A DNA stretch of 64,000 nucleotides from assembly GCF_902713615.1 (NCBI RefSeq), contig NC_052154.1:92449030-92513029 (forward strand), in the 5' to 3' direction. Under the pieces are notes generated by a model. It did not search any database. It was not told the origin of the DNA and worked only from the letters and a program-made list of their open reading frames with translations. Below, piece after piece: positions 7,062 to 58,600 of the stretch. The position numbers and the translations under genes are program-made. Position 1 is the stretch's first letter. Each line of letters begins with the position of its first letter. Origin of the DNA: Scyliorhinus canicula (taxonomy: Eukaryota).

Positions 7062-10000
7062 ACAAAGAACAAAGATCAAAGAAAAATTACAGCACAGGAA
7101 CAGGCCCTTCGGCCCTCCAAGCCTGCGCCGATCCAGATCCTCTATCTAAAACTGTTGCCTATTTTCTAAGGATATATATCCCTCTGCTCCCTGCCCATTC
7201 ATGTATCTGTCTAGATACATCTTAAATGACGCTATCATGCCAGCCTCTACCACCTCTGCAATGCGTTCCAGACACCCACCACCCTCTGCTTAAAGAACTT
7301 TCCACGCATATCTCCCTTAAACTTTTCCCCTCTCACCTTGAACTCGTGACCCCCAGTAATTGAGTCGCCCACTCTGGGAAAAAGCTTCTTGATATCCACC
7401 CTGTCTATACCTCTCATGATTTTGTAGACCTCAATGAGATCCCCCCTCAACCCCTGTATTTCTAATGAAAATAATCCTAATCTACTCAATTTGTCTTCAT
7501 AGCTAGCGCCCTCCATACCAGGCAACATCCTGGTGAACCTCCTTTGCACCTTATCCAAAGCATCCACATCCTTTTAGTAATGTGGCGACCAGAACTGTAC
7601 GCCGTATTCCAAATGTGGTGACCAGAACTGAACACAGCATTCCAAATGTGGCCAAACCAAAGTCTTATACATCTGTAACATGACTTGCCAACTCGTGTAC
7701 TCAGTACCTCTTCCGATGAAGGAAAGCATGCAGTATGCCTTCTTGACCACTCTATTGACCTGCAGCCACCTTCAGGGTACAATGGACCTGAACACCCAGA
7801 TCTCTCTGTACATCAATTTTCCCCAGGGCTTTTTGATTTACCATACAGTTCACTCTTGAATTGGATCTTCCAAAATGCATTACCTCGGATTGAACTCCAT
7901 CTGCCATTTCTCCGCACAATTCTCCAATCTACCTATATTCTGCTGTATTCTCTGACAGTCCCCTTCACTATCTGCAACTCCACCAATCTTAGTGTCATCT
8001 GCAAACTTGCTAATTAGACCACCTATACCTTCCTCCAGATTATTTATGTATATCTCACACAACAGTGGTCCCAACAGAGATCCCTGTGGAACACCACAGG
8101 TCACAGTTCACTATTTTGAGTAACTCCCTTCCACTACTACTCTCTGTCTCCTGTTGCCCAGCCAGTTCTTTATCCATCTAGCTACCTGGACCCCGCGAGA
8201 CTTCACTTTCTCCATCAGTCTACCATGGGAAACCTTATCAAATGCCTTACTGAAGTCCATGTATATGACATCTACATCCCTTCCCTCATCAATCAACTTT
8301 GTCACTTTCTCAAAGAATTCTATGAAGTTGATAAGACATAACCTTTGCTGCACAAAACCATGTTGCCTATCACTGATAAGCCCATTTTCTGCCAAATGGG
8401 AATAGATCCTATCCCTCAGTATCTTCTCCAGTAGCTTCCCTACCACTGACATCAGGCTCTCCAGTATATAATTACCTAGATTATCCCTGCTACCCTTCTT
8501 AAACAAGGGGACAACATTAGCAATTCTCCAGTCCTCCGGTACATCACCCGTGTTCAAGGATGCTGCAAAGATGTCTGTTAAGGCCCCAGCTATTTCCTCT
8601 CTCATTTCCCTCAGTAACCTGGGATAGATCCCATCCGGACCTGGGGACTTGTCCACCTTAATGCCTTTTAGAATACCTAACACATCCTCCCTCCTTATGC
8701 CGACTTGACCGAGAGTAATCAAACATCTATCCTTAACCTCAACATCCATCATGTCCCTATCCTAGGTAAATACCGATGCAAAGTACTCGTTAAGAATCTC
8801 ACCCATTTTCTCTGACTCCACACATAACTTTCCTCCTTTGTCCTTGAGTGGGCCAACCCTTTCTCTAGTTACCCTCTTGCTCCTTATATATGAATAACAG
8901 GCTTTGGGATTTTCCTTAACCCTGGTTGCTAAAGATATTTCATGACCCCTTTTAGCCCTCTTGATTCCTCGTTTCAGATTGGTCCGACTGAAACTTCAAC
9001 CACCTGGCCGGGCTCATTCCCCAACATGAGGTCCAGTATGGCCCTTCCCGAGTTGGACTTTTACATCCTGCTCTATAAAACCCTCCTGGATGCTCCTTAC
9101 AAATTCTGCTCCATCTAGACCTCTGACACTAAGTGTATCCCAGTCAATGTTGGGAAAATTAAAATCTATCACCACCACCCTGTTGCTTCTACACCTTTCC
9201 ATAATCGGTTTCCATATTTGTACCTCTATCTCATGCTCACTTTTGGGATGTCTGTAGTACAACCCCAACATTGTTACCACACCCTTCCTATTTCTGAGCT
9301 CTGCCCAAATCACTTCACTGCTCGAGACCTCCATAGCACCCTCCTTCAGCTCAGCTGTGATATCCTCTCTCACCAGTAATGCAACTCATTCACCCCTTTT
9401 ACCTCCCTCTCTATCCCGCCTGAAGCATCGATATCCTGTGATATTTAGTTGCCAATCATGCCCTTCCCTCAACCAAGTCTCAGTAATAGCAATAACATCA
9501 TACTCCCAGGTACTAATCCAAACCCTAAGATCATCTATCCTACCTACTACACATTTAGCATTAAACCAAATGCACCTCAGACCACCAGTCCCTTTGCGTT
9601 CATCATCTGCTCCCTGTCTACTCTTCCCCTTAGTTACACTGATTTCATGACTTCATAGTTCTTTACAGGCTTTAGTTACTGCCTCCTTACTGTCCACTAA
9701 CCGCCTCATTTAGTTCCCATCACCCTGCCACATTAGTGTAAACCTCCCCAACAGCGTTATCAAAAGCACCCCCAAGGACATTGGTTCCAGTCCAGCCCAG
9801 GTGTAGTCCCTCCAATTTGTAGTCATCCCATCTCCCCCAGAACCGGTCCCAATGTCCCAAAAATCTGAACCCCTCCCTCCTGCACCATCTCTCAGGTCAC
9901 GAATTCATCCTGCCTATTCTTTCATTTCTACTCTGACTACCACGTGGCACTGGTAGCAATCCTGAGATTACTATCACTGAGGTCCGACTTTGTAACTTAG

Positions 10001-24772: not shown

Positions 24773-27494
24773 GAGGGGGTTATTGAGAGGAGTTATAGGG
24801 AGGTAGTCACACATCAGGTAAAAGAAGAAGGTAGATGGGTTACCATCAGGGGAACGAGAGGGAACCGGCAGGCAGTGCAGGGATCCCCTGTGGTCGTTCC
24901 CCTCAATAACAAGTATACCGTTTTGGATACTGTTGGGGGGGGGGGAACGACTTACCTGGGGTAAACAATGGGGCACAGGTCTCTGGCACAGAGTCTGTCC
25001 CTGTTGCTCAGAAGGGAAGGGAGAAGAGGAACAGAGCACTTGTCATTGGGTACTCCATAGTTAGAGGAATAGACTGGAGGTTCTGTGGGAACGAAAGAGA
25101 CTCACGGTTGGTGTGTTGCCTCCCAGGTGCCAGGGTTCGTGATGTCTCTGATCATGTTTTTGGGATCCTTAAGGGGGAGGGGGAACAGCCCCAAGTCGTG
25201 GTCTAAATAGGTACCAATGACATAGGTAGGAAGAGAGATGGGGATTTGAGACAGAAATTCAGGGAGCTAGGGTGGAAGCTGAGAGCTAGAACAAACAGAG
25301 TTGTTATCTTTGGGTTGTTAGCCGTGCCACGTGCTAGCGAAGTGAGAAGTAAGGAGAGTGAGGAGTTGACCACGTGGCTACAGGGATGGTGCAGGAGGGA
25401 GGGTTTTGGTTTCCTGGATAATTGGGGCTCATTCTGGGGTAGGTGGGACCTCTACAAACAGGATGGTCTTCACCTGAACCAGAGGGGTACCAATATCCTG
25501 GCGGGGAGATTTGCTAGTGCTCTTCGGGGGGGGGGGGGGGGGGGGGGTTTTAAACTAATTCTGCAGGGGGATGGGAACCTAAATTGTAGTCCCAGTGTCC
25601 AGGATGTTGAGAGTAGTGAGCTCAGGGATAGGGTTAAAAGTTCGAAAGAGGGCACCGGCAAGCAAGATGCTGGTTTGAAGTGTGTCTACTTCAACGCCAG
25701 GAGCATCCGGAATAAGGTGGGTGAGCTTGCAGCATGGGTTGGTACCTGGGATCTCGATGTTGTGGCGATTTGGAGACATGGGTAGGGCAGGGACAGGAAT
25801 GGTTGTTGCAGGTTCCAGGATTTAGATGTTTCTGTAAGAACAGAGAAGATGGAAAAAGTGGTGGGGGGGGGGGGGGGTGTGGCATTGTTAATCAAGGAAA
25901 GTATTACAGCGGCAGAAAGGACGTTTGAGGACTTGTCTACTGAGGTAGTATGGGCCGAGGTTAGGAACAGGAGAGGAGAGAGGTCAGTGTGTTGGGAGTT
26001 GTCTATAGACCTCCGAATAGTTACAGAGATGTAGAGGATAGGATAGCAAAGATGATTCTCGACAGGAGCGAGAGTAACAGAGTAGTTGTTATGGGGGACT
26101 AGAACTTTCCAAATATTGACTGGAAATACTATAGTTCGAGTACTATAGATGGGTCAGTTTTTGTGCGGTGTGTGCAGGAGGGTTTTCTGACACAGTATGT
26201 AGACAGGCCAACAAGGGCGATGCCCCATTGGATTTGGTACTGGGTAATGAACCCGGCCAGGTGTTAGATTTAGATGTAGGTGAGCACTTTGGTGATAGTC
26301 ATCACAATTCGGTTATGTTTACTTTAGCGATGGGCAGGGATAGGTATATACCACAAGGCAAGCATTATAGCTGGGGGAAAGGCAACTATTCGGCAAGATT
26401 TAGGATGTATAGTATGGGGAAGGAAACTGCAGGGGATGGGTACAATCGAAATGTGGAGATTTTTCAAGGAACAGCTACTGCGTGTCCTTGATAAGTATGT
26501 ACCTGTCAGGCAGGGAGGAAGTTGTCGAGCAAGGGAACCGTGGTTTACTAAGGAAGTTGAAGCGCTTGTCAAGAGGAAGAAGAAGGCTTATGTTAGGACG
26601 AGACATGAAGGCTCAGTTAGGGCACTTGAGAATTACAAGTTAGCCAGGAAGGACCTAAAGGGAGAGTTAAGAAGAGCGAGGAAAGGACACGAAAAGTCAT
26701 TGGCGGATAGGATCAAGGAAAACCCTAAGGCTTTCTATAGGTATATCAGGAACAAAAGAATGACTGGAGTAAGATTAGGGCCCATCAAGGATAGTAGTGG
26801 AAAGTTGTGTGTGGAATCAGAGGAGATAGGGGAAGCGTTAAATGGATATTTTTCTTCAGTGTTTACACTGAAGAAAGACAATGTTGTCGAGGAGAATATT
26901 TAGGTACAGTCGACCAGGCTAGATGGGATTGAGGTTCACAAGGAGGAGGTGTTAGCAATTTTGGAAAATGTAAAAATAGATAAATCCCCTGGGCCAGATG
27001 GGATTTATCCTAGGATTCTTTGGGAAGCCAGGAGGAGATTGCAGAGCCTTTGTCCTTGATCTTTATGTCGTCTTTGTCGACAGGAATAGTGCCGGAAGAC
27101 TGGAGGATAGCAAATGTTGCCCCCTTGTTCAAGAAGGGGAGTAGAGACAACCCTGGTAATTAAAGACCTGTGAGCCTTACTTCGGTTGTGGGTAAAATGT
27201 TGGAAAAGGTTACAAGAGATAGGGTTTATAATCACCTTGAAAAGAACAAGTTGATTAGCGATACTGAACACGGTTTTGTGAAGGGTAGGTCATGCCTCAT
27301 AAACCTTATTGAGTTTTTTGAGAAGTTGACGAAACAGGTGGATGAGGGTAAAGCGGTTGATGTGGTGTATATATGGATTTCAGTAAGGCGTTTGATAAGG
27401 TTCCCCACGGTAGGCTATTGCAGAAAATAAGGAAGTATGGAATTGAAGGTGATTTAGCGGTTTGGATCAGTAATTGGCTAGCTGAAAGAAGATG
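24773..27494 (+). mobile_element. Degenerate CR1 (ORF1 esterase + ORF2 APE/part of RT), truncated at both ends, in the V-C1 intron
   Basis: Colinear with about 41020-43710 of the intact element (DGLHLN, CVYFNARS, LDLVLG, SLTSVVGK). Carries stops, frameshifts and expanded G runs; no 3' tail. Confidence 0.92.
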
Positions 27495-33666: not shown

Positions 33667-36600
33667 TGTGGTGAATATATTCACCTAGTGCATGAGCTAT
33701 CTGTATGATACTGTAACCTATTCTAGAGCTGTTGGGGAGGGTTTAAACTAATGTGGCAGGGGGATGGGAACCAATGCTGGAAGTTGGAAGGTAGTAAAAC
33801 AGGGACAGAAACAAAAGGAAGTAAGGGGAAAAGTGCAAGGCAGAGAAGACATAGTCAGAAATCCATAAGGTCGACAGTACAAGGTACAGTGACTGAGGGG
33901 AGCACAGTGAATAGGCCCAGTAATAACAAAAGGAATAAAACTGGAGATGTTAAGATTCAAAACAGAGGTAAAAAAAACAACATAAGTGTACTTTACCTGA
34001 ATGCTCGTAGTATTCGGAATAAAGTAAATGAGTTGGCGGCACAAATCATCGTAAATGACTATGATTTAGTGGCCATTACTGAAACATGGTTAAAGGATGG
34101 TCACGACTGGGAGTTAAATATCCGAGGGTATCAAACTATTCGGAAGGACAGAGTGGATGGTAAGGGAGGTGGTGTTGCTCTGTTATTTAAGGATGACATC
34201 CGGGCAATAGTAAGGGATGACATTGGTGCTATGGAGGATAAGGTTGAATCCATTTGGGTGGAAATCAGGAATAGTGAGGCGAAAAAGTCACTGATAGGAG
34301 TAGTCTATCGGCCACCAAATAGTAACGACATGGTGGGGCAGGCAATAAACAAAGAAATAACTGATGCATGTAGAAATGGTACAGCAGTAATCATGGGGGA
34401 TTTTAATCTACATGTCGATTGGTTTAACCAGGTCGGTCAAGGCAACCGTGAGGAGGAGTTTATAGAATGTATCCGCGATAGTTTCCTAGAACAGTATGTA
34501 ATGGAACCTATGAGGGAACAAGCGGTCCTAGATCTTGTCCTGTGTAATGAGACAGGATTGATTCATGATCTCATAGTTAGGGATCCTCTCGGAAGGAGCG
34601 ATCACAATATGGTGGAATTTAAAATACAGATGGAGGGTGAGAAAGTAAAATCAAATACTAGTGTTTTGTGTTTAAAAAAAGGAGATTACAAGGGGATGAG
34701 AGAAGAACTAGCTAAGGTAGACTGGGAGCTAAGACTTTATGGTGGAACAGTTGAGGAACAGTGGAGAACCTTCCAAGCAATTTTTCACAATGCTCAGCAA
34801 AGGTTTATACCAACAAAAAGGAAGGACGGAAGAAAGAGGGAAAATCGACCGTGGATACTAAGGAAATAAGGGAGAGTATCAAATTGAAGGAAAAAGCATA
34901 TAAAGTGGCAAAGATTGCTGGGAGATTAGAGGACTGGGAAATCTTTAGGGGGCAACAGAAAGCTACTAAAAAAGCTATAAAGAAGAGTAAGATAGAGTAT
35001 GAGAGTAAACTTGCTCAGAATATAAAACCAGACAGTAAAAGTTTTTACAAATATATAAGACAAAAAAGAGTGGCTAAGGTAAATATTGGTCCTTTAGAGG
35101 ATGAGAAGGGAGTTTTAATAATGGGAAATGAGGAAATGGCTGAGGCACTGAACAGGTTTTTTGGGTCGGTCTTCACAGTGGAAGACACAAATAACATGCC
35201 AGCGACTGATAGAAATGAGGCTATGACAGGTGAGGACCTTGAGAGGATTGTTATCACTAAGGAGGGAGTGATGGGCAAGTTAATGGGGCTAAAGGTAGAC
35301 AAGTCTCCTGGCCCTGATGGAATGTATCCCAGAGTGCTAAAAGAGATGGCTAGGGAAATTGCAGATGCACTAGTGATAATTTACCGAAATTCACTAGACT
35401 CTGGGGTGGTCCCGGTGGATTGGAAATTAGCAAACGTGACGCCACTGTTTAAAAAAGGAGGTAGGCAGAAAGCAGGGAATTATAGGCCAGTGAGTTTAAC
35501 TTCGGTAATAGGGAAGATGCTGGAATCTATCATCAAGGAAGAAATTGCGAGGCATCTGGATAGAAATTGTCCCATTGGGTAGACGCAGCATGGGTTCGTA
35601 AAAGGCAGGTCATGCCTAACTAATTTAGTGGAATATTTTGAGGACATTACCAGTGCAGTAGATAACGGGGAGCCTATGGATGTGGTATATCTGGATTTCC
35701 AGAAAGCCTTTGACAAGGTGCCACACAAAAGGTTGCTGCATAAGATAAAGATGCATGGCATTAAGGGTAAAGTAGTAGCATGGATAGAGGATTGGTTAAT
35801 TAATAGAAAGCAAAGAGTTGGGATAAATGGATGTTTCTCTGGTTGGCAATCAGTGGCTAGTGGTGTCCCTCAGCGATCCGTGTTGGGCCCACAATTGTTC
35901 ACAATTTACATTGATGATTTGGAGTTGGGGACCAAGGGCAATGTGTCCAAGTTTGCAGATGACACTAAGATGAGTGGTAAAGCGAAAAGTGCAGAGGATA
36001 CTGGAAGTCTGCAGAGGAATTTGGATAGGTTAAGTGAATGGGCTAGGGTCTGGCAGATGGAATACAATGTTGACAAATGTGAGGTTATCCATTTTGGTAG
36101 GAATAACAGCAAACGGGATTATTATTTAAACAATAAAATATTAAAGCATGCCGCTGTTCAGAGAGACTTGGGTGTGCTAGTGCATGAGTCACAGAAGGTT
36201 GGTTTACAAGTGCAACAGGTGATTAAGAAGGCAAATGGAATTTTGTCCTTCATTGCTAGAGGGATGGAGTTTAAGACTAGGGAGGTTATGTTGCAATTGT
36301 ATAAGGTGTTAGTGAGGCCACACCTGGAGTATTGTGTTCAGTTTTGGTCTCCTTATCTGAGAAAGGACGTACTGGCACTGGAGGGTGTGCAGAGGAGATT
36401 CACTAGGTTAATCCCAGAGCTGAAGGGGTTGGATTATGAGGAGAGGTTGAGTAGACTGGGACTGTACTCGTTGGAACTTAGAAGGATGAGGGGGGATCTA
36501 ATAGAAACATTTAAAATTATGAAGGGAATAGATAGGATAGATGTGGGCAGGTTGTTTCCACTGGCGGGTGACAGCAGAACTAGGGGGCATAGCCTCAAAA

Positions 36601-39252: not shown

Positions 39253-40853
39253 TCTCTATTGGGTTCCGAAGACATTCGATAACGGAGTCCTGTTGTCCAA
39301 AGTGGCTAAGCCTATGCCAAATCTAGTTTGGGCTACAGATACCGCAGGAGAATTTTTATCCCTAAACTAATCTTGGAATAAGGCGAATATCAGGAGACAG
39401 CTCCTTGAGGCAGAAAAACTCGGAGCAGGAGTCGGCCATTCGACCCCTCGGGATTGCCTAGCTATTTATTATTGAAACCATTTGTGGAACGAACTGCATG
39501 GAAGAGTGGCGGAGGCAGTTTCGATGGTGGTTTTCAAAAGAGAGTTAGATTATTACCCAAAACGGAAAATCAGTTCCAGGCGAAAGGCCTGGGAGTGGCG
39601 CTGAAACAATGAGGTTTCAATTCCTAAAACGCTTTTCACGGTCCATTAGAGCAATGAAGTAATGTTTCAAGTTCTGAGTGACTAGCACTTGCAGAGAGCT
39701 GACACAGACATGACGGGCCGAAGGTCTCCTTCAGCGCTGTAACCATTCTGTGATTCTAAATATTATTGAATCATAAATAGGCTGGGGACAAGAAGGGAAG
39801 ACAATGGATTAGTGGTGATTTCACTGGGCTAGTAATACAGACATGCTCTGGGGACGTCGGTTCAATCCCATCAGGGCAACTGGTAGAATTTCAATTAAAT
39901 GAATTAATCTGGGAATAAACAGTTTGCCACATCTGAGTCACTAATGTGAAGGAAACCTTCCATCCTTACCTGGCCTGACATACATTTGTCTCCAGATCCA
40001 CAGCAATGTGGTTGATTCTTGCCTCCTGAAATGGTGTGATAATGTGATGGGCAACAATGCACACATCCCGTGAAATAATAAATTAAAAACTGAAAACATA
40101 GTTCAGCATTCTTTATTTTGATCCATTAATAGATAGCTTAAGTTTAAACTTTCACAAAGGGTCATCTGGACTCGAAACATTAGCTCTTTTCTCTGCCTTG
40201 AGATGCTGCCAGACCTGCTGAGATTTTCCAGCATTTTCTGTTTGGTTTAAGTTTAAACGCACTAAAGTAGCAACAGTTGATAAAACTGTTCCAGGCATTA
40301 ATCTTCTAGAATGGAACAATGTACTGCTTTATATGTACATACGGATTTCAGTTAAATCCTGTAGATCCTGACATTCCCTCCCCCCCCCCCCCCCCGACCA
40401 CCCGCCCTCTTACATATTGTAAAGCTGGTTTAGCTCAGTGGGCTAGACAACTGGTTTGTAGGCCAGCAGCGGGGTTTCAATTCCCGTACCAACACTGTGT
40501 ACCCAAACAGGCGCCGGAATGCTGCGACCAGCAGAGGGCAGCAGAGCAGAGCTACTGATCAGCTGTTCTGGGGAAATTTGCATACGTGCAGTGCGGTCAG
40601 CCTAAGTTGAAGGTGGTTTGTGGAGGGGCTGTTGGCAAGTGACAGTTAAACCCGAAACACTTTCCCACCCTACCTCCTCCTCTAACCAACCCCCCCACCC
40701 CACGGTGGTTGGGAAGCGGGAGCAGGGGCCTGTCGTGAAGGTGAGTGAGTGCCTTTAAGTTTGCTTACCTTTCAGCGGGATCAGGGTTTGAGGTAATATC
40801 AGGTAAGCTCTTCCTTTCTTTTTCTTTTTCTTGTTTTTTTTAATCTAGAGGGG

Positions 40854-41780
40854 ATGTCAGGGAAGGCAGTACAATGCTCCTCCTGCAGAATGTTTGAGGT
40901 GAGGGACGCCGTCAGTGTCCCTGCTGATTTCATCTGTGGGAAGTGCACCCAACTCCAGCTCCTCAAAAACCGTGTTAGGGACCTGGAGCTTGAGCTGGAT
41001 GAACTTCGGATCATTCGGGAGGCAGAGGGGGTCATAGATAGGAGCTTCAGGGAAGTAGTTACACCAAAGACTGGAGATAGATGGGTAACTGTAAGAGGGA
41101 CTGGGAAGAAGCAGTCAGTGCAGGGACCCCCTGCGGTCGTTCCCCTGAGTAACAAGTATACCGTTTTGGATACTTGTGGGGGGGACGACTTACCAGGGGT
41201 AAGCCATGGGGTACGGGCCTCTGGCACGGAGTCTGTCCCTGTTGCTCAGAAGGGAAGGGGGGAAAGGAGTAGAACATTAGTAATTGGGGACTCAATAGTC
41301 AGGGGCACAGATAGGAGATTTTGTGGGAGCGAGAGAGACTCACGTTTGGTATGTTGCCTCCCAGGTGCAAGGGTACGTGATGTCTCGGATCGTGTTTTCC
41401 GGGTCCTTAAGGGGGAGGGGGAGCAGCCCCAAGTCGTAGTCCACATTGGCACTAACGACATAGGTAGGAAAGGGGACAAGGATGTCAGGCAGGCCTTTAG
41501 GGAGCTAGGATGGAAGCTCAGAGCGAGAACAAACAGAGTTGTTATCTCTGGGTTGTTGCCCGTGCCACGTGATAGTGAGATGAGGAATAGGGAGAGACAG
41601 CAATTAAACACGTGGCTACAGGGATGGTGCAGGCGGGAGGGATTCAGATTTCTGGATAACTGGGGCTCTTTCTGGGGAAGGTGGGACCTCTATAGACAGG
41701 ATGGTCTACATCTGAACCTGAGGGGCACCAATATCCTGGGGGGGAGATTTGTTAGTACTCTTTGGGGGGGTTTAAACTAA
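40854..41780 (+). CDS. CR1 ORF1p: zinc finger, coiled coil/leucine zipper and SGNH esterase
   Basis: 308 aa, open. CSSC…CGKC, LQLLKNRVRDLELELDEL, GDS, GTND and DGLH (SGNH blocks intact). Confidence 0.93.
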   Translation: MSGKAVQCSSCRMFEVRDAVSVPADFICGKCTQLQLLKNRVRDLELELDELRIIREAEGVIDRSFREVVTPKTGDRWVTVRGTGKKQSVQGPPAVVPLSNKYTVLDTCGGDDLPGVSHGVRASGTESVPVAQKGRGERSRTLVIGDSIVRGTDRRFCGSERDSRLVCCLPGARVRDVSDRVFRVLKGEGEQPQVVVHIGTNDIGRKGDKDVRQAFRELGWKLRARTNRVVISGLLPVPRDSEMRNRERQQLNTWLQGWCRREGFRFLDNWGSFWGRWDLYRQDGLHLNLRGTNILGGRFVSTLWGGLN

Positions 41781-44665
41781 TTCAGCAGGGGCATGGGAAC
41801 CTGGATTGTAGTTTTGGGGTGCGAGAGATTGAGAGTAGAGAGGTCAGGAGCACAGTTTTGACTTCGCAGGAGGGCGGCAGTGTTCAGGTCTGTGGTTTGA
41901 AGTGTGTCTATTTCAATGCCAGGAGTATACGAAATAAGGTAGGGGAACTGGCAGCATGGGTAGGTACCTGGGACTTCGATGTTGTGGCCATTTCAGAGAC
42001 ATGGATAGAGCAGGGACAGGAATGGTTGTTGCAGGTTCCGGGGTTTAGGTGCTTTAGTAAGGTCAGAGAAGGGGGCAAAAGAGGGGGAGGTGTGGCGCTG
42101 CTAGTCAAGGACAGTATTACGGTGGTAGAAAGGATGCAAGATGGGGACTCTTCTTCCGAGGTAGTATGGGCTGAGGTTAGAAACAGGAAAGGAGAGGTCA
42201 CCCTGTTGGGAGTTTTCTATAGGCCACCTAATAGTTCTAGAGATGTAGAGGAAAGGATGGCGAAGATGATTCTGGAAAAGAGCGAAAGTAACAGGGTAGT
42301 TGTTATGGGAGACTTTAACTTTCCTAATATTGACTGGAAAAGATATAGTTCGAGTACATTGGATGGGTCGTTCTTTGTACAATGTGTGCAGGAGGGTTTT
42401 CTGACACAATATGTTGACAGGCCAACAAGAGGTGAGGCCACTTTGGATTTGGTTTTGGGTAATGAACCAGGCCAGGTGTTAGATCTGGAGGTAGGTGAAC
42501 ACTTTGGAGACAGTGACCACAATTCGGTGACCTTTACGTTAGTGATGGAAAGGGATAAGTATACCCCGCAGAGCAAGAGTTATAGCTGGGGGAAGGGCAA
42601 TTATGATGCCATTAGACATGACTTAGGATGTGTTGGTTGGAGAAGTAGGCTGCAAGGGTTGGGCACACTGGATATGTGGAGCTTGTTCAAGGAACAGCTA
42701 TTGCATGTTCTTGATAAGTACGTACCAGTCAGGCAGGGAGGAAGGGGTCGAGCGAGGGAACCGTGGTTTACCAAAGAAGTGGAATCTCTTGTTAAGAGGA
42801 AGAAGGAGGCCTATGTGAAGATGAGGCGTGAAGTTTCAGTTGGGGCGCTTGATAGTTACAAGGAAGCGAGGAAGGATCTAAAGAGAGAGCTGAGACGAGC
42901 AAGGAGGGGACATGAGAAGTCTTTGGCAGGTAGGATCAAGGAAAACCCAAAAGCTTTCTATAGGTATGTCAGGAATAAAAGAATGACTAGGGTAAGAGTA
43001 GGGCCAGTCAAGGACAGTGGTGGGAAGTTGTGTGTGGAGGCTGAGGAGATAAGCGAGATACTAAATGAATACTTTTCGTCAGTATTCACTCAAGAAAAAG
43101 ATAATATTGTGGAGGAGAATGCTGAGACCCAGGCTATTAGAATAGATGGCATTGAGGTGCGTAGGGAAGAAGTGTTGGCAATTCTGGACAAGGTGAAAAT
43201 AGATAAGTCCCCGGGGCCGGATGGGATTTATCCTAGGATTCTCTGGGAAGCCAGGGAAGAGATTGCTGAGCCTTTGGCTTTGATTTTTAGGTCATCATTA
43301 GCTACAGGAATAGTGCCAGAGGACTGGAGGATAGCAAATGTGGTCCCTTTGTTCAAGAAGGGGAGTAGAGATAACCCCGGTAACTATAGGCCGGTGAGCC
43401 TAACGTCTGTGGTGGGTAAAGTCTTGGAGAGGATTATAAAAGATACGATTTATAATCATCTAGATAGGAATAATATGATTAGGGATAGTCAGCATGGTTT
43501 TGTGAAGGGTAGGTCATGCCTCACAAACCTTATCGAGTTCTTTGAGAAGGTGACTGAACAGGTAGACGAGGGTAGAGCAGTTGATGTGGTGTATATGGAT
43601 TTCAGTAAAGCGTTTGATAAGGTTCCCCACGGTCGGCTATTGCAGAAAATACGGAGGCTGGGGATTGAGGGTGATTTAGAGATGTGGATCAGAAATTGGC
43701 TAGTTGAAAGAAGACAGAGAGTGGTAGTTGATGGGAAATGTTCAGAATGGAGTTCAGTTACGAGTGGCGTACCACAAGGATCTGTTCTGGGGCCGTTGCT
43801 GTTTGTCATTTTTATAAATGACCTAGAGGAGGGCGCAGAAGGATGGGTGAGTAAATTTGCAGACGACACTAAAGTCGGTGGAGTTGTAGACAGTGCGGAA
43901 GGATGTTGCAGGTTACAGAGGGACATAGATAAGCTGCAGAGCTGGGCTGAGAGGTGGCAAATGGAGTTTAATGTGGAGAAGTGTGAGGTGATTCACTTTG
44001 GAAAGAATAACAGGAATGCGGAATATTTGGCTAATGGTAAAATTCTTGGTAGTGTGGATGAGCAGAGGGATCTCGGTGTCCATGTACATAGATCCCTGAA
44101 AGTTGCCACCCAGGTTGATAGGGTTGTGAAGAAGGCCTATGGTGTGTTGGCCTTTATTGGTAGAGGGATTGAGTTCCGGAGCCATGAGGTCATGATGCAG
44201 CTGTACCAAACTCTGGTACGGCCGCATTTGGAGTATTGCGTACAGTTCTGGTCGCCTCATTATAGGAAGGACGTGGAAGCTTTGGAACGGGTGCAGAGGA
44301 GATTTACCAGGATGTTGCCTGGTATGGAGGGAAAATCTTATGAGGAAAGGCTGATGGACTTGAGGTTGTTTTCGTTAGAGAGAAGAAGGTTAAGAGGTGA
44401 CTTAATAGAGGCATACAAAATGATCAGAGGGTTAGATAGGGTGGACAGCGAGAGCCTTCTCCCGCGGATGGAGGTGGCTAGCACGAGGGGACATAGCCTT
44501 AAATTGAGGGGTAATAGATATAGGACAGAGGTCAGAGGTGGGTTTTTTACGCAAAGAGTGGTGAGGCCGTGGAATGCCCTACCTGCAACAGTAGTGAACT
44601 CGCCAACATTGAGGGCATTTAAAAATTTATTGGATAAGCATATGGATGATAAGGGCATAGTGTAG
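41762..44665 (+). CDS. CR1 ORF2p: APE endonuclease + reverse transcriptase (no in-frame ATG before the APE domain)
   Basis: 967 open codons. APE motifs FNARS, ISETW, YRPP, GDFN, SDH; RT motifs YRPVSLT, QHGF, DFSKAFDKV, GVPQGSVLGP, FADD. Lies in the -1 frame and overlaps the end of ORF1. Confidence 0.93.
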   Translation: MGGFKLIQQGHGNLDCSFGVREIESREVRSTVLTSQEGGSVQVCGLKCVYFNARSIRNKVGELAAWVGTWDFDVVAISETWIEQGQEWLLQVPGFRCFSKVREGGKRGGGVALLVKDSITVVERMQDGDSSSEVVWAEVRNRKGEVTLLGVFYRPPNSSRDVEERMAKMILEKSESNRVVVMGDFNFPNIDWKRYSSSTLDGSFFVQCVQEGFLTQYVDRPTRGEATLDLVLGNEPGQVLDLEVGEHFGDSDHNSVTFTLVMERDKYTPQSKSYSWGKGNYDAIRHDLGCVGWRSRLQGLGTLDMWSLFKEQLLHVLDKYVPVRQGGRGRAREPWFTKEVESLVKRKKEAYVKMRREVSVGALDSYKEARKDLKRELRRARRGHEKSLAGRIKENPKAFYRYVRNKRMTRVRVGPVKDSGGKLCVEAEEISEILNEYFSSVFTQEKDNIVEENAETQAIRIDGIEVRREEVLAILDKVKIDKSPGPDGIYPRILWEAREEIAEPLALIFRSSLATGIVPEDWRIANVVPLFKKGSRDNPGNYRPVSLTSVVGKVLERIIKDTIYNHLDRNNMIRDSQHGFVKGRSCLTNLIEFFEKVTEQVDEGRAVDVVYMDFSKAFDKVPHGRLLQKIRRLGIEGDLEMWIRNWLVERRQRVVVDGKCSEWSSVTSGVPQGSVLGPLLFVIFINDLEEGAEGWVSKFADDTKVGGVVDSAEGCCRLQRDIDKLQSWAERWQMEFNVEKCEVIHFGKNNRNAEYLANGKILGSVDEQRDLGVHVHRSLKVATQVDRVVKKAYGVLAFIGRGIEFRSHEVMMQLYQTLVRPHLEYCVQFWSPHYRKDVEALERVQRRFTRMLPGMEGKSYEERLMDLRLFSLERRRLRGDLIEAYKMIRGLDRVDSESLLPRMEVASTRGHSLKLRGNRYRTEVRGGFFTQRVVRPWNALPATVVNSPTLRAFKNLLDKHMDDKGIV

Positions 44666-45526
44666 GTTAGATGGCCTTTAGTTTTTTTTTCCATGTCGGT
44701 GCAACATCGAGGGCCGAAGGGCCTGTACTGCGCTGTATCGTTCTATGTTCTATGACTGGGGCCTTTTCACAGTAACTTCATTGCAATGTTAGTGTAAGCC
44801 TACTTGTGACAATAAAAGGTTATATTATATTATATTAATTTCTGCGTCTCCAGCCACCGAGTCTTCCCCATAGGGAAACGACTTCTCGTAAATTAAAAAA
44901 AAGTCCCTAAAAAAAAATGAAAGGGGGCAAAATAAAAAAAAATTCAAAAAGGGATTCAAGGCTTCCAGTTAGTTAATATAGAAAAAATAAGCTGACTGTA
45001 AATTAATGGTTCAAAGTCCAAGGGCCATTGCGAATTGAACAGTATACCCTGGGTTTTACAATGTTAAAGTTACCCAAGATTGTTTAATTTTACAAATTGC
45101 AGCACATAATATTTGAATTATGATTTTGATCACTACAGCTCCAGCGGTAGATTGGAATTACTGAAAGGTTGGAAAATAGAGAGGAATTTTACAACGCCTT
45201 GATCTCCGGGCGGAGTCGGTCAGTCGGCTGAAGTTTTCACTGCCCGCCTTTTCCCCTTCAATCAGGACAATTCATCCAATGATAGAAAGGGCCCCAAGAT
45301 TTTCCAATCGTATCCATGCTGCGTGCAAGGCCCGGCAGATAGCTGAACATTTTGTCCCCCGTTTCCAACACTGGTTGGATACCACACAACTCCCTAAAAT
45401 GGGAAAATCAAGACCATCCTCCACTCCACAGTGCATCTACGTCAAAGCAGTTTTCCCAACTAATGAATTATTTCAAAGTTTTGATCTTCGTTCGGAATAA
45501 TAGCAAGAGGGTTAATTCATCGCCGA

Positions 45527-55619: not shown

Positions 55620-58600
55620 CATTGGGGATAGTATCTCGGTGACCAGGATCTAGAATGCCAAACGTTGTGTTGCCTGCATGGTGCTCAGGTTGAGGATCTG
55701 GGCTGAAGAGGAATTTTGTTTTTTATAATCTTTATTGTCAGAAGTAAACTTACATTAACATTGCAATGAAATTACTGTGAAAAGTCCATACCAACCACAT
55801 TCTGGTGCATGTTCGGATACACGGAGGGAGAATTCCGAATACCCAAATTACCTAACAGCATGTCTTTCGGCACTTGTCGGAGGAAACTGGATCATGTGGA
55901 GGAAACCATGCAGACACGGAGAAAACATGCAGACTCCACACAGACAGTGACTGAAGCCGGCAATCGAACCTGGGACCCTGGCGCTGTGAAGCAACAGTGC
56001 TATCATGCCACCCTTCGAGTGGGAGGGTAAAGATCTAATTGTCATGGTCCACGTAGGTACCAATGATATAGGTAGAATAAGGACAGAGTTTCTGCTAAGG
56101 GAGTATGAACAGCTAAGAGCTAAATTAAAAAGCAGAAGCAAGAAGGTAATGATCTCTGGATTACTACCTGCGCCCCAAGCTGTAAATTCTATTATGGGCA
56201 GCATAGCAGCACAAGTGGATAGCACTGTAGTTTCACAGTGCCAGGGTCCCAGGTTCGATTCCCCACTGGGTCACTGTGCAGAGTCTGCACGTTCTGCCCG
56301 TGTCTGCGTGGGTTTTCTCCGGGTGCTCCAGTTTCCTCCCACAGTCCAAAGACATGTGGGTTAGGTGGATTGGCCAAGATAAATTGCCCTTAGTGACCAA
56401 AAAGGTTAGGAGGGGTTATTGGGTTATGGAGATCGGGTGGAAGTGAGTTGAGTGCAGACTCAATGGGCTGCACGGTATGTTCTATGTTCTAATTGGCATG
56501 GGGTCAATAAGATTAAGGAGATAAATGAGTGGCTCAAGGATTAATGTGGGAGAAATAGGTTTGAATTCATGGGACATTGGCATCAGTACTGGGGAAGAGG
56601 GGACCTTTACCGAAGGGACAGTTTTCATCTGAATCATGCTGGAACCAGAGTCCTGGTGAATCACATAACCAGGATTGTAGAGGGCAGCATTGTGGGGCAG
56701 TGAGTTAGCCCTGCAGCCTGACTGCACCGAGGTCCCAGGTTCGATCCCCACTCTGAGTCACTGTCCGTGTGGAGTTTGCACATTCTCCCTATGTTTGCGT
56801 GGGTTTCACCCTTACAACCCAAAGATGTGCAGGCTAGGTGGATTGGCCATGCTAAGTTGCCCCTTATTTGGAAAAAAATGAATTGGGTACTCTAAATTTT
56901 TTTTTTTTAAACTAGGACTGTAGGTAGGGCTTCAAATTTAATAAAAGAACAGAGCGTATAGATGGTGGCAGAAATCTAACCTCAGGCAGAGCAAAAACAT
57001 GGTCAAATATGAGAAGGGGGAGGTCAATGCAGGACTGAGGATGTTGTACCTAAATGCATGATGTATATGAAACAAGGTAAATAAGTATGTCGCACACATT
57101 GAAATTGGCAGGTATGATGCTGTGGGCTTCACAGAGAGGTGTGTACAAGATGATCAGGGATGGGATCTAATTATCCAAGGATGTGTCCTATTGAAAGACA
57201 GGAAGATGGGCAGAAGGGGTGAGTTTGCATTGTTCATAAGGAATTAAATGACATTGACAGAAAGATGCGACATAGGATCGGAAGCAGAGAATCTGTATGG
57301 GTAGAGTTGAGGAATTGCAAACAAAAAAAGACCCCGGTGGGAGCATACAAAGGAGCGAGGATTAGTGGTAAACCAGAGGATTTTCAAACCTTTAAAACCA
57401 ATCAGAGGACAACTAAGAAATATGAGTGCAAACTGGCGAGTAACACAAAAGAAGATAGCAAGAGATTATTTTCAATATATCACAGTAAGAGAAACACAAG
57501 AATGGACATTGGATCACTGGAAAATGAGCCCGCAGAAGTAGCAAGAGTAAACTTTGCATCCATCTGCACGATGGAAGACACCAGTGGAATATCAGACCTT
57601 CAGGAGAATCAGGGGCAGAGGTGAGTTTAGTCGCCATCACTAAAGAGAAGGTATGGGAAAACTGAAATGTCTGAAGGTGGATATATCTTAAAGTGGATAT
57701 ATCTCAAGGTGGATATATCTCCTGGACCAGATGAACTACACCCCAGGGATCTGAAGGAGATAGCTGATGATATTGTGAAGGCTTTGATGGTGATCTTTCA
57801 GGAATCAGTGGAGGCAGAGAAGATCCCAGAGGGCTGGAAAATGGTGAATGTAACACCCCAGTTTAAGGTGGGATGGAGGTAGAAGATGGGAAATTATAGG
57901 TTGGTTAGCCTGACTTCGGACATGGGTAAGATTTTAGAGTCCATTATTAAAGATGTGATTGCAGAGTACTTGGAAGTTCATAATCAAAGAGGACTGAATC
58001 AGCAGGGCTTCGTCAAGGACGACAATCAGTTAGAGTTCTTTGAGGACGTAACGAGGAGGTTAGACAAAGGAGAACTAGTGGACATAGAACATAGAACAGT
58101 ACAGCACAGAACAGGCCCTTCGGCCCTCGATGTTGTGCCGAGCAATGATCACCCTACTTAAACCCACGTAACCCGTATACCCGTAACCCAACAATCCCCC
58201 CATTAACCTTACACTATGGGCAATTTTAGCATGGCCAATCCACCTAACCCGCACATCTTTGGACTGTGGGAGGAAACCGGAGCACCCGGAGGAAACCCAC
58301 GCACACAACGGGAGGACGTGCAGACTCCACACAGACAGTGACCCAGCCGGGAACCGAACCTGGGACCCTGGAGCTGTGAAGCATTGATGCTAACCACCAT
58401 GCTACCGTGAGGCCCCCTTGCTACCGTGAGGCCCCCTAACTACCGTGAGGCCCCCATGATCTATTTAGATTTCCAGAAGCCGTTTGACAAGTTGCCATAT
58501 AGGAGAGCTTTAAATAAGTTAAGAGTCCATGGTGTTAAGGGGAAGATATTGGCATGGACAGAGGATTGGCTGACTGGCAGAAGGCAGAGAGTTAGGATAA

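Follow-up and report, generated by a model that had tools for sequence, protein, structure and literature searches.

Among the repeats of the chicken genome, CR1 ranks first in abundance (PMC11835228), and in the consulted parts of two reviews the translation of ORF2 in LINEs is called an open question (PMC3894237, PMC2881922). The vertebrate esterase-type CR1 elements (subgroup 7, ORF1 type IVB) share with the element analysed here a Cys motif and an SGNH esterase in ORF1, an APE endonuclease and reverse transcriptase (RT) in ORF2, and their vertebrate range; the portion of their description at hand is silent on ORF2 translation and has no occurrence of the word 'frameshift' (PMC4120745). SART1 and L1 are bicistronic LINE mRNAs like CR1, and the overlapping stop-start UAAUG recurs in three related CR1 subfamilies; according to the reviews, as far as consulted, their ORF2 depends on ORF1 translation and a separate ORF2p is made. 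For the APE-type non-LTR elements TRE5-A and TRE3-A of Dictyostelium, the figure legend of a review states that a −1 frameshift is needed for ORF2 (PMC5911963), and frameshifting in a non-LTR element has thus already been stated before; unlike CR1, these elements have an unrelated ORF1 and belong to another clade and another host. No report of frameshifting in CR1 was found in the literature searched, and primary CR1 papers or Repbase entries may hold an earlier remark on the overlap.

At the junction of the two reading frames the likeness is to viral signals. As in the coronavirus IBV type, CR1 has a heptamer in slip register, a polymerase in the −1 frame and a predicted control of the ratio of structural to enzymatic product (PMC5009743, PMC7618472, both consulted in part), and its heptamer, U_UUA_AAC, is listed among the most shift-prone on mammalian ribosomes (PMC5009743). 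Unlike that type, CR1 is without a stem-loop at the usual spacer of 5-9 nt, its 0-frame stop is immediate and the host is a non-LTR element. The protein-stimulated −2/−1 frameshift of PRRSV nsp2 resembles CR1 in having no obvious structure and a short conserved low-complexity motif past a 10-nt spacer, 9-11 nt being the efficient range in the sections consulted (PMC4937337). Unlike PRRSV, CR1 uses another heptamer, and its motif, a candidate stimulator, is G-rich rather than C-rich.

The element, its reading frames and its copies

The window, i.e. the whole stretch of 64,000 nucleotides of Scyliorhinus canicula DNA that was analysed, contains the following element, reading frames and additional CR1 junctions:

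40527..44754, + strand: full-length young CR1 LINE of subfamily A, ending in two TTCTATG units (3' end read from the sequence)
40854..41780, + strand: ORF1, 308 aa, with an N-terminal Cys motif, an SGNH/GDSL esterase and the C-terminus ...WGGLN*
41894..44665, + strand: ORF2, APE endonuclease and RT, first in-frame ATG at 42134
25549..25569, + strand: junction of a subfamily A2 copy, with heptamer, TAATT and GGGG
33742..33762, + strand: junction of a 5'-truncated subfamily B copy, with heptamer, TAATG and GGGG
9720..9742, − strand: decayed junction of an old subfamily E copy, TTTACAC TAATG
56931..56940, + strand: decayed junction of an old subfamily D copy, TTCAAAT, the fifth in the window and missed by the sequence-only reading that preceded this analysis

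Most of 29 other subfamily A copies (97.8-99.6% identity) have their 5' boundary at the equivalent of 40524-40540, and no target-site duplication of at least 7 nt was found around the element at 40527..44754. ORF2 carries APE and RT, the 3' tail consists of short tandem repeats and dispersed copies are 5'-truncated, as expected of CR1. The element is probably a CR1 LINE with an esterase ORF1 of subgroup 7, type IVB, an assignment made through ORF1 likeness. The esterase matches PF13472 (E 7e-15), C11, C28, C31 and the Leu repeats are conserved in the manner of a zinc finger and leucine zipper, and ORF1 resembles shark, frog and bird-type proteins, including the duck-labelled P0109 and P0110. 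ORF2, read in the −1 frame, is open between 41756 and 44665, and its first ATG, codon 122 counted from the heptamer, lies inside the endonuclease, in agreement with the sequence-only reading. Numbered along the stop-to-stop frame, the Pfam APE match begins at residue 52, upstream of this ATG, and AUG initiation in subfamily A would cost about 75 residues of the match.

CR1 is very abundant in this genome (49,077 first-look candidates). No relative was found in the viral contigs and genome contigs searched. Five ORF1 C-terminal matches, three of them with a readable junction, came from 55 unselected 10-kb stretches, and 22 of 30 metagenome loci had no usable junction, mostly because the sequence stops short of it. 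Searches for fused proteins and for ORF2 N-terminal proteins returned three matches each, none informative about the junction. Another candidate for the fifth junction of the window, TTTAAACTAG at 56906, turned out to be the T tail of an insert joined to ORF1 sequence; the real one is at 56931.

Layout and conservation of the junction

The intact copy has the following arrangement:

41753..41755, + strand: last −1 frame stop (TAG) upstream of the heptamer, the 5' limit for a frame change in this copy
41771..41777, + strand: slippery heptamer U_UUA_AAC (TTTAAAC), in ORF1 register
41778..41780, + strand: ORF1 stop, abutting the heptamer, its TA shared with the −1 frame Leu codon CTA
41777..41893, + strand: variable linker from heptamer to endonuclease, without stops in the −1 frame
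41788..41797, + strand: G-rich motif (GGGG, 3 nt, GGG), 10 nt past the heptamer, a candidate structure-free stimulator
41793..41795, + strand: first AUG 3' of the ORF1 stop, with G at −3 and +4

The sequence-only reading had described much of this correctly. TTTAAAC lies in ORF1 register (GGT TTA AAC TAA), i.e. as an X_XXY_YYZ heptamer in the 0 frame, the arrangement of a canonical −1 signal. Further occurrences of TTTAAACTAA lie at 25549 and 33742, and TAATG in the 33.7 and 9.7 kb copies stands against TAATT in the intact copy, to which the 25.5 kb copy can be added. The overlapping G_GGT_TTA (41768-41774) is likewise present in the intact copy; its relevance is not supported, as no more than three of the 13 lineage representatives have it. 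By the simultaneous-slippage rule, GGLK rather than the proposed GGFK would result from a tandem slip at G_GGU_UUA; for U_UUA_AAC the expected trans-frame peptide is ...GGLN-LIQQG.

The 13 lineage representatives comprise six subfamilies of the S. canicula genome and seven bird-type loci; they are more intact copies by choice, and old subfamilies show decay. T TTA AAC TA is invariant in all 13, and the stop that it enters is TAA in six and TAG in seven. All three wobble sites within the heptamer are invariant, as opposed to 0 of 23 upstream (p 4e-4, nominal since the lineages are related by descent), which bears out the earlier proposal that the heptamer is kept across subfamilies. The codon just 5' of the heptamer encodes six different amino acids, ending in T every time; an invariant Leu 20 codons upstream is spelled with four different codons, and across the invariant-residue columns of ORF1 and APE in eight lineages a single codon is kept in 1 of 19. 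LN forms the C-terminus in 53 of 56 ORF1 homologues, which come from sharks, rays and frogs and from bird-type sequences (counting those that end 22-30 aa beyond a DGLH-like motif), preceded by 11 different residues, a T-ending codon being possible for 52 of the 53. On these comparisons, the heptamer is conserved as nucleotides, beyond protein constraint.

Exact heptamers occur in 30/30 loci of subfamily A, 9/12 of D and 11/15 of E, and the subfamilies with UAAUG retain it in 47/48 and 11/15 located copies. The TTTACAC noted at 9.7 kb is present (TTTACACTAA, 9742-9733, − strand) and represents the decay of one old copy, TTTAAAC being found in 11/15 loci of its subfamily. The suggestion that subfamilies differ in decoding strategy is therefore not borne out: UAAUG subfamilies keep the heptamer, and TTTACAC is decay.

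The −1 frame opens merely 3 nt 5' of the heptamer in 3/13 lineages, where a frame change is thus limited to 13 nt, and 3-6 nt 5' of it in 6/13. Downstream, the linker spans 33-80 codons; over the eight representatives measured it has 0 stops in the −1 frame, while the other two frames contain 27 and 34. The pattern of heptamer, stop, 7 nt and GGGG has three matches, every one a junction (expected 0.00). By itself the junction 10-mer is weak, with 16 matches at up to one mismatch against 6.28 expected and four exact matches, one of which (15718) is outside any CR1 junction.

The G-rich motif and RNA folding

Counted from the heptamer, G is present at +11, +14 and +19 in 15/15 representatives and at +20 in 14/15, and 13/15 have GGGG at +11..+14. 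This exact tract is found in 29/30, 47/48, 39/40, 14/15, 12/12 and 7/8 copies, and in 1/12 copies of old subfamily D. CR1 thus shares with protein-stimulated frameshifting a conserved unstructured motif whose spacer is constant at about 10 nt. The downstream hairpin for which the sequence-only reading proposed a folding check did not emerge: 29 folds gave z-scores of −1.7 to +1.6, none significant, a consensus fold of seven sequences contained 0 consensus pairs, and there was no significant or shared nested fold 5-9 nt past the heptamer. A pseudoknot requires a shared stem, and the absence of a shared nested fold speaks against one, as far as nested folding goes. RNA structure 3' of the stop, of the type described for SART1, was not found either.

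Two other structural candidates were discarded. The best duplexes between the G motif and a long-range partner lie at differing positions in seven elements, and the folds of an upstream hairpin are unlike between lineages (compared without a shuffle control). A G-quadruplex appears in the minimum-energy fold of 7/15 representatives, the intact copy not among them, a count without a background control. The natural use of a G-quadruplex as frameshift stimulator was unknown as of a 2016 review, in the part consulted (PMC5009743). It is possible, though we hold it doubtful, that esterase-type CR1 elements from sharks to birds make a Gag-Pol-like fusion through a structure-free signal (U_UUA_AAC, stop, 10-nt spacer and G-tract) that has a G-tract-binding protein or a G-quadruplex as its switch. 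As a stimulator, a structure-free G-rich motif would be new; if real, it would be a natural class of its own, conserved across jawed vertebrates, and ORF2p would be incorporated directly into the ORF1p particle.

Routes to ORF2

The same heptamer, stop and G-rich motif in shark-type and bird-type CR1 make it likely that the enzyme is made through a ribosomal slip, and we put the probability that programmed −1 frameshifting at U_UUA_AAC yields an ORF1-ORF2 fusion of 1,270 residues at roughly 0.7. Most ribosomes would terminate at the ORF1 stop and release ORF1p, while a minority would slip back one base at the heptamer and read on into ORF2, giving the order esterase-linker-endonuclease-reverse transcriptase. 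The tRNA-Leu and tRNA-Asn would re-pair on UUU AAA, with CUA as the next codon and ...GGLN-LIQQG as the peptide, and a low slip rate would set the ratio of ORF1p to ORF2p. Most speculatively, a pause might arise from the adjacent stop together with the G-rich motif beyond its 10-nt spacer, the motif either carrying a bound protein or forming a G-quadruplex. Fusion by programmed −1 frameshifting, as the sequence-only reading envisaged it, has gained strong comparative support from the nucleotide invariance, the 13-nt window, the open linker and the lack of a usable AUG in subfamily A, where the −1 frame is open into APE; the idea of subfamily-specific decoding found no support.

The main rival is termination-reinitiation, in which ribosomes terminate at the ORF1 stop, resume in the −1 frame 1-2 codons from it, on an AUG or a near-cognate codon, and make a separate ORF2p, be it through UAAUG, UAGnnAUG or AUU/GUG, the heptamer and G motif then serving termination or ribosome retention. 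Coupling of this kind is used by the studied LINEs L1 and SART1 (PMC2881922, consulted in part); in SART1 it is by UAAUG, and L1 withstands a change of its ORF2 AUG to sense codons, according to the sections consulted (PMC3894237, PMC1965478). An in-frame AUG lies at the stop or 2 nt past it in 6/13 lineages and inside the linker in two more (codons 49 and 23); with 8/13 lineages thus carrying one before APE, only subfamilies A and A2 clearly need a non-AUG route. UAAUG itself occurs in 3/13 representatives, from related subfamilies, and is absent from 10/13; the intact copy, with TAATT, does not have this overlap, and its first AUG past the stop, at 41793, is in the ORF1 frame and therefore out of frame with ORF2. 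A, A2, C, L109 and L129 have ATT, GTG or TTG as codon 4 or 5, and an open linker is predicted equally well by a restart. The identity and position of the start codon are, however, variable (codon 4 or 5; AAT/AGT, GGT/TCG and GAT/TGG in D, L113 and L114), a TURBS-like UGGGA upstream is missing from 7/7 bird-type loci, and the invariance of an exact X_XXY_YYZ heptamer in slip register is left unexplained; a tether of 33-80 codons ahead of APE would also suit a fusion better. We consider reinitiation unlikely; it could also operate alongside frameshifting in the AUG-bearing families.

Less probable again is that the junction is conserved for some other purpose as RNA or DNA (assembly of the RNP, binding of ORF1p or localisation), with ORF2 reached independently of it, for example by internal entry. 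In favour, the conserved island is both short and single-stranded, alignments of reads from other subfamilies are confined to 41762-41803, and basic peptides of esterase ORF1ps have been proposed to bind specific RNA elements (PMC3905857, consulted in part); against it, the frame, the register and the TA after the heptamer match a slip site exactly, and the −1 frame opens just 3-6 nt upstream in 6/13 lineages. Two further explanations seem very improbable. Protein constraint on the Leu-Asn of ORF1 and a Gly-x-Gly of ORF2, combined with shared ancestry and a G-rich strand bias, would leave no signal at all, and LN is indeed conserved at the protein level in lineages of common descent with a sense-strand GC skew of up to +0.43. 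This reading is largely refuted by the wobble comparison: synonymous positions are fixed even though the residue ahead of LN is free to vary, codons change in 18/19 other invariant-residue columns, and GGG makes up only 80/248 downstream Gly codons. Equally improbable is a spliced or polymerase-slipped transcript that brings ORF2 into frame. Genomic copies are prone to indels in the G and T runs of the junction, but raw reads had no recurrent insertion at 41764-41780 (2% threshold) and no ORF1-to-ORF2 splice was among the 15 joints listed, with 18 further joints beyond those. Poly(A) reads span the junction.

If CR1 frameshifts, the retroviral solution is also that of a major vertebrate LINE clade, a tether joins ORF2p to ORF1p and the annotated starts of ORF2 are wrong; for a direct test, a cassette of 30 nt is enough. 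Against frameshifting one may set the lack of a conventional stimulator, the in-frame AUGs of many lineages and the decay in old subfamilies. A pre-fused active subfamily, which would demonstrate a working fusion, was not found among the copies; the five fused copies examined come from four separate mutation events, L181 and L182 being one duplicated locus with 100% identity over 6,938 nt including the flanks.

The ORF1/ORF2 junction and its copies

The features of the window that bear on the analysis, together with one unrelated call, are:

40527–44754, full-length young LINE
40854–41780, ORF1 with an SGNH esterase
−1 frame relative to ORF1, ORF2 with domains for an endonuclease (APE) and a reverse transcriptase (RT)
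2229–2318, ARAGORN call of a tRNA-Phe (anticodon AAA), which is probably spurious or due to a tRNA-derived repeat

The element is filed as a CR1 with an esterase ORF1 on its domain layout and homologues rather than on an RT tree; the closest named relatives of ORF1 found by homologue search come from sharks and rays. The family is very abundant: in a 4.2 Gb genome, a first-look search for the ORF1 end gave 49,077 candidates. Re-reading of the sequence bears out all that the sequence-only reading had stated about the junction, including an ORF2 devoid of ATG until well inside the APE domain: the earliest in-frame ATG comes at codon 122 (42134), some 75 residues past the start of the APE match. 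The first AUG downstream of the ORF1 stop lies in the ORF1 frame.

The junction is a family trait rather than a single-copy error. Tabulated over copies, as had been proposed, the heptamer U_UUA_AAC (41771–41777) is exact in most located junctions of every group, the window's own copies included: 30/30 in subfamily A (that of the intact copy), 47/48 in B (50 loci), 40/40 in C (two loci counted twice), 10/12 in A2, 11/15 in E, 9/12 in D (15 loci) and 8/8 at metagenome loci (30 loci). The subfamily letters A–F are labels coined here. A junction was located by a match within 2–3 substitutions, so heavily decayed junctions enter as not located. No junction sequence was contained in the queries used for A and D or in the linker query for B; for B and C, queries with the whole ORF1 took in the junction's last two residues, and for A2 and E the DNA queries spanned the junction.

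Individual copies show further peculiarities. In A2 the G run preceding the heptamer has grown to 20 or more G (window 25520–25548; loci L241–L252), and the query favoured such copies. A T-tailed, SINE-like insert lies within the final codons of ORF1 in an old CR1 copy at about 56690–56908; TTTAAACTAG at 56906 was rejected as a junction, being a chance word made by the insert's T tail and ORF1 sequence. The subfamily D linker (L144, L146) holds a second TTTAAACTAG-like word, whose translation in L146's ORF2 frame is D-F-K-L-V, and one contig carries a junction duplicated over 33 nt.

Conservation at the heptamer

Because copies within one subfamily tell little, 13 lineage representatives were compared, namely six subfamilies of this genome and seven bird-type metagenome loci, a term that denotes likeness to duck-labelled proteins and does not name the host. 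T TTA AAC TA is identical in all 13, and the codon preceding TTA ends in T every time while encoding six amino acids. Of 23 wobble positions further upstream, by contrast, not one is invariant. Four different codons encode the invariant Leu of the DGLHL motif, and one of 19 invariant residues of ORF1 and APE keeps a single codon across eight lineages. The lineages are related, so that the p-values (4e-4 and 1.5e-4) are nominal, and the representatives were chosen as intact copies. At the protein level, 56 of 108 ORF1 homologues end 22–30 residues past the motif, and 53 of these, ray- and frog-labelled proteins among them, terminate in LN. The residue before LN has 11 identities and lacks a T-ending codon in 1/53, as against 19% at neighbouring positions. 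On comparative grounds, there is a real, deeply conserved recoding-like signal at the junction.

The distant, mostly bony-fish-labelled esterase ORF1s P0091–P0107 have no LN end; 10/17 end in Thr-Asp, pointing to a putative different conserved junction in that group. CR1 proteins P0007, P0076 and P0114 are labelled Pseudomonas aeruginosa, Protopolystoma xenopodis and Carnobacterium maltaromaticum, likely through vertebrate host contamination of public records.

Entry into ORF2

The linker from heptamer to APE (33–80 codons) is free of −1 frame stops in 8/8 measurable representatives, the other two frames holding 27 and 34. In three lineages the −1 frame is shut 3 nt upstream of the heptamer, and in another three it is shut 6 nt upstream. 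With the linker open and the frame closed just upstream in several lineages, ORF2 entry is most simply placed at the junction, which fits frameshifting and reinitiation equally. Programmed −1 frameshifting into an ORF1–ORF2 fusion is the best explanation and a probable one (at roughly 0.7), favoured by which bases are invariant and in what register, by the absence of an AUG ahead of APE in subfamily A and by the variation of start-codon candidates. The main rival, termination–reinitiation yielding a separate ORF2 protein, is rated as rather unlikely and draws its support from an AUG in frame with ORF2 that lies at the stop in six of the 13 lineages and inside the linker in two others. Both may operate side by side in AUG-bearing families. 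The further suggestion that subfamilies differ in decoding strategy is unsupported, because families with the TAATG stop-start overlap retain the heptamer; they are close relatives, and their AUG corresponds to an Ile/Met exchange at codon 4 of the −1 frame. Five single-frame copies of 1,306–1,330 residues go back to four distinct events, indels or stop losses at the junction, and two of the copies are one duplicated locus; such natural fusions neither support nor contradict a working fusion protein.

Folding, the check proposed for a downstream stimulatory hairpin, detected no conserved nested structure (z-scores −1.7 to +1.6 in 29 folds; no consensus pairs in seven sequences), and no long-range partner common to the elements was found. 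A G-rich motif begins 11 nt past the heptamer (10-nt spacer), with G at +11, +14 and +19 in 15/15 representatives and at +20 in 14/15. Positions +11, +14 and +20 are −1 frame wobble positions, and of 248 Gly codons downstream 80 are GGG. In D, an old subfamily, the motif region is rich in G, yet an exact GGGG occurs in only 1/12 copies. PMC4937337 describes a protein-stimulated PRRSV signal with the same spacer length and likewise without structure, and PMC5009743 the stimulation of frameshifting by G-quadruplexes in synthetic constructs; both parallels are analogies rather than tests.

Frameshifting is not a new idea for non-LTR elements, as a review's figure legend states it for Dictyostelium TRE5-A and TRE3-A (PMC5911963) and it has been suggested for Paramecium LINEs. 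No description for CR1 turned up among the literature listings searched, nor in the portions covered of PMC5009743 (where 'chicken repeat' is absent from the text covered), PMC11835228, PMC2881922, PMC10275272, PMC4937337, PMC7618472, PMC4120745, PMC5405496, PMC5408684, PMC3905857, PMC5911963, PMC5006619, PMC1965478, PMC4255032 and PMC3894237, a search that did not reach the primary CR1, SART1 and L1 papers.

Transcripts and the 5' end

One poly(A) single-cell run placed 40,238 reads on the element, at depths of 133–249 in one orientation and 18–35 in the other over two junction bins. Since any copy may be their source, the reads demonstrate transcription of the family, rather than translation. 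No ORF1–ORF2 splice joint occurs among the 15 listed of 33 joints, and no variable place in 41768–41781 among the 40 listed of 89. At 80% likeness depth doubles across 41762–41803, because reads of other subfamilies match solely there.

The 88-nt unit at the 5' end (40527–40615) is single here, and other elements of subfamily A carry as many as four copies of it in tandem; RNA reads have back-joints of 86–89 nt, the pattern being that of a monomer-type 5' promoter array. Within the 5' UTR (40741–40848), donor-like GTGAGT (40741) and GTAAG (40803), along with a pyrimidine tract and, 5 nt upstream of the ORF1 ATG, an AG, may delimit a candidate intron, read mapping skipping 40806–40846 as repeat.
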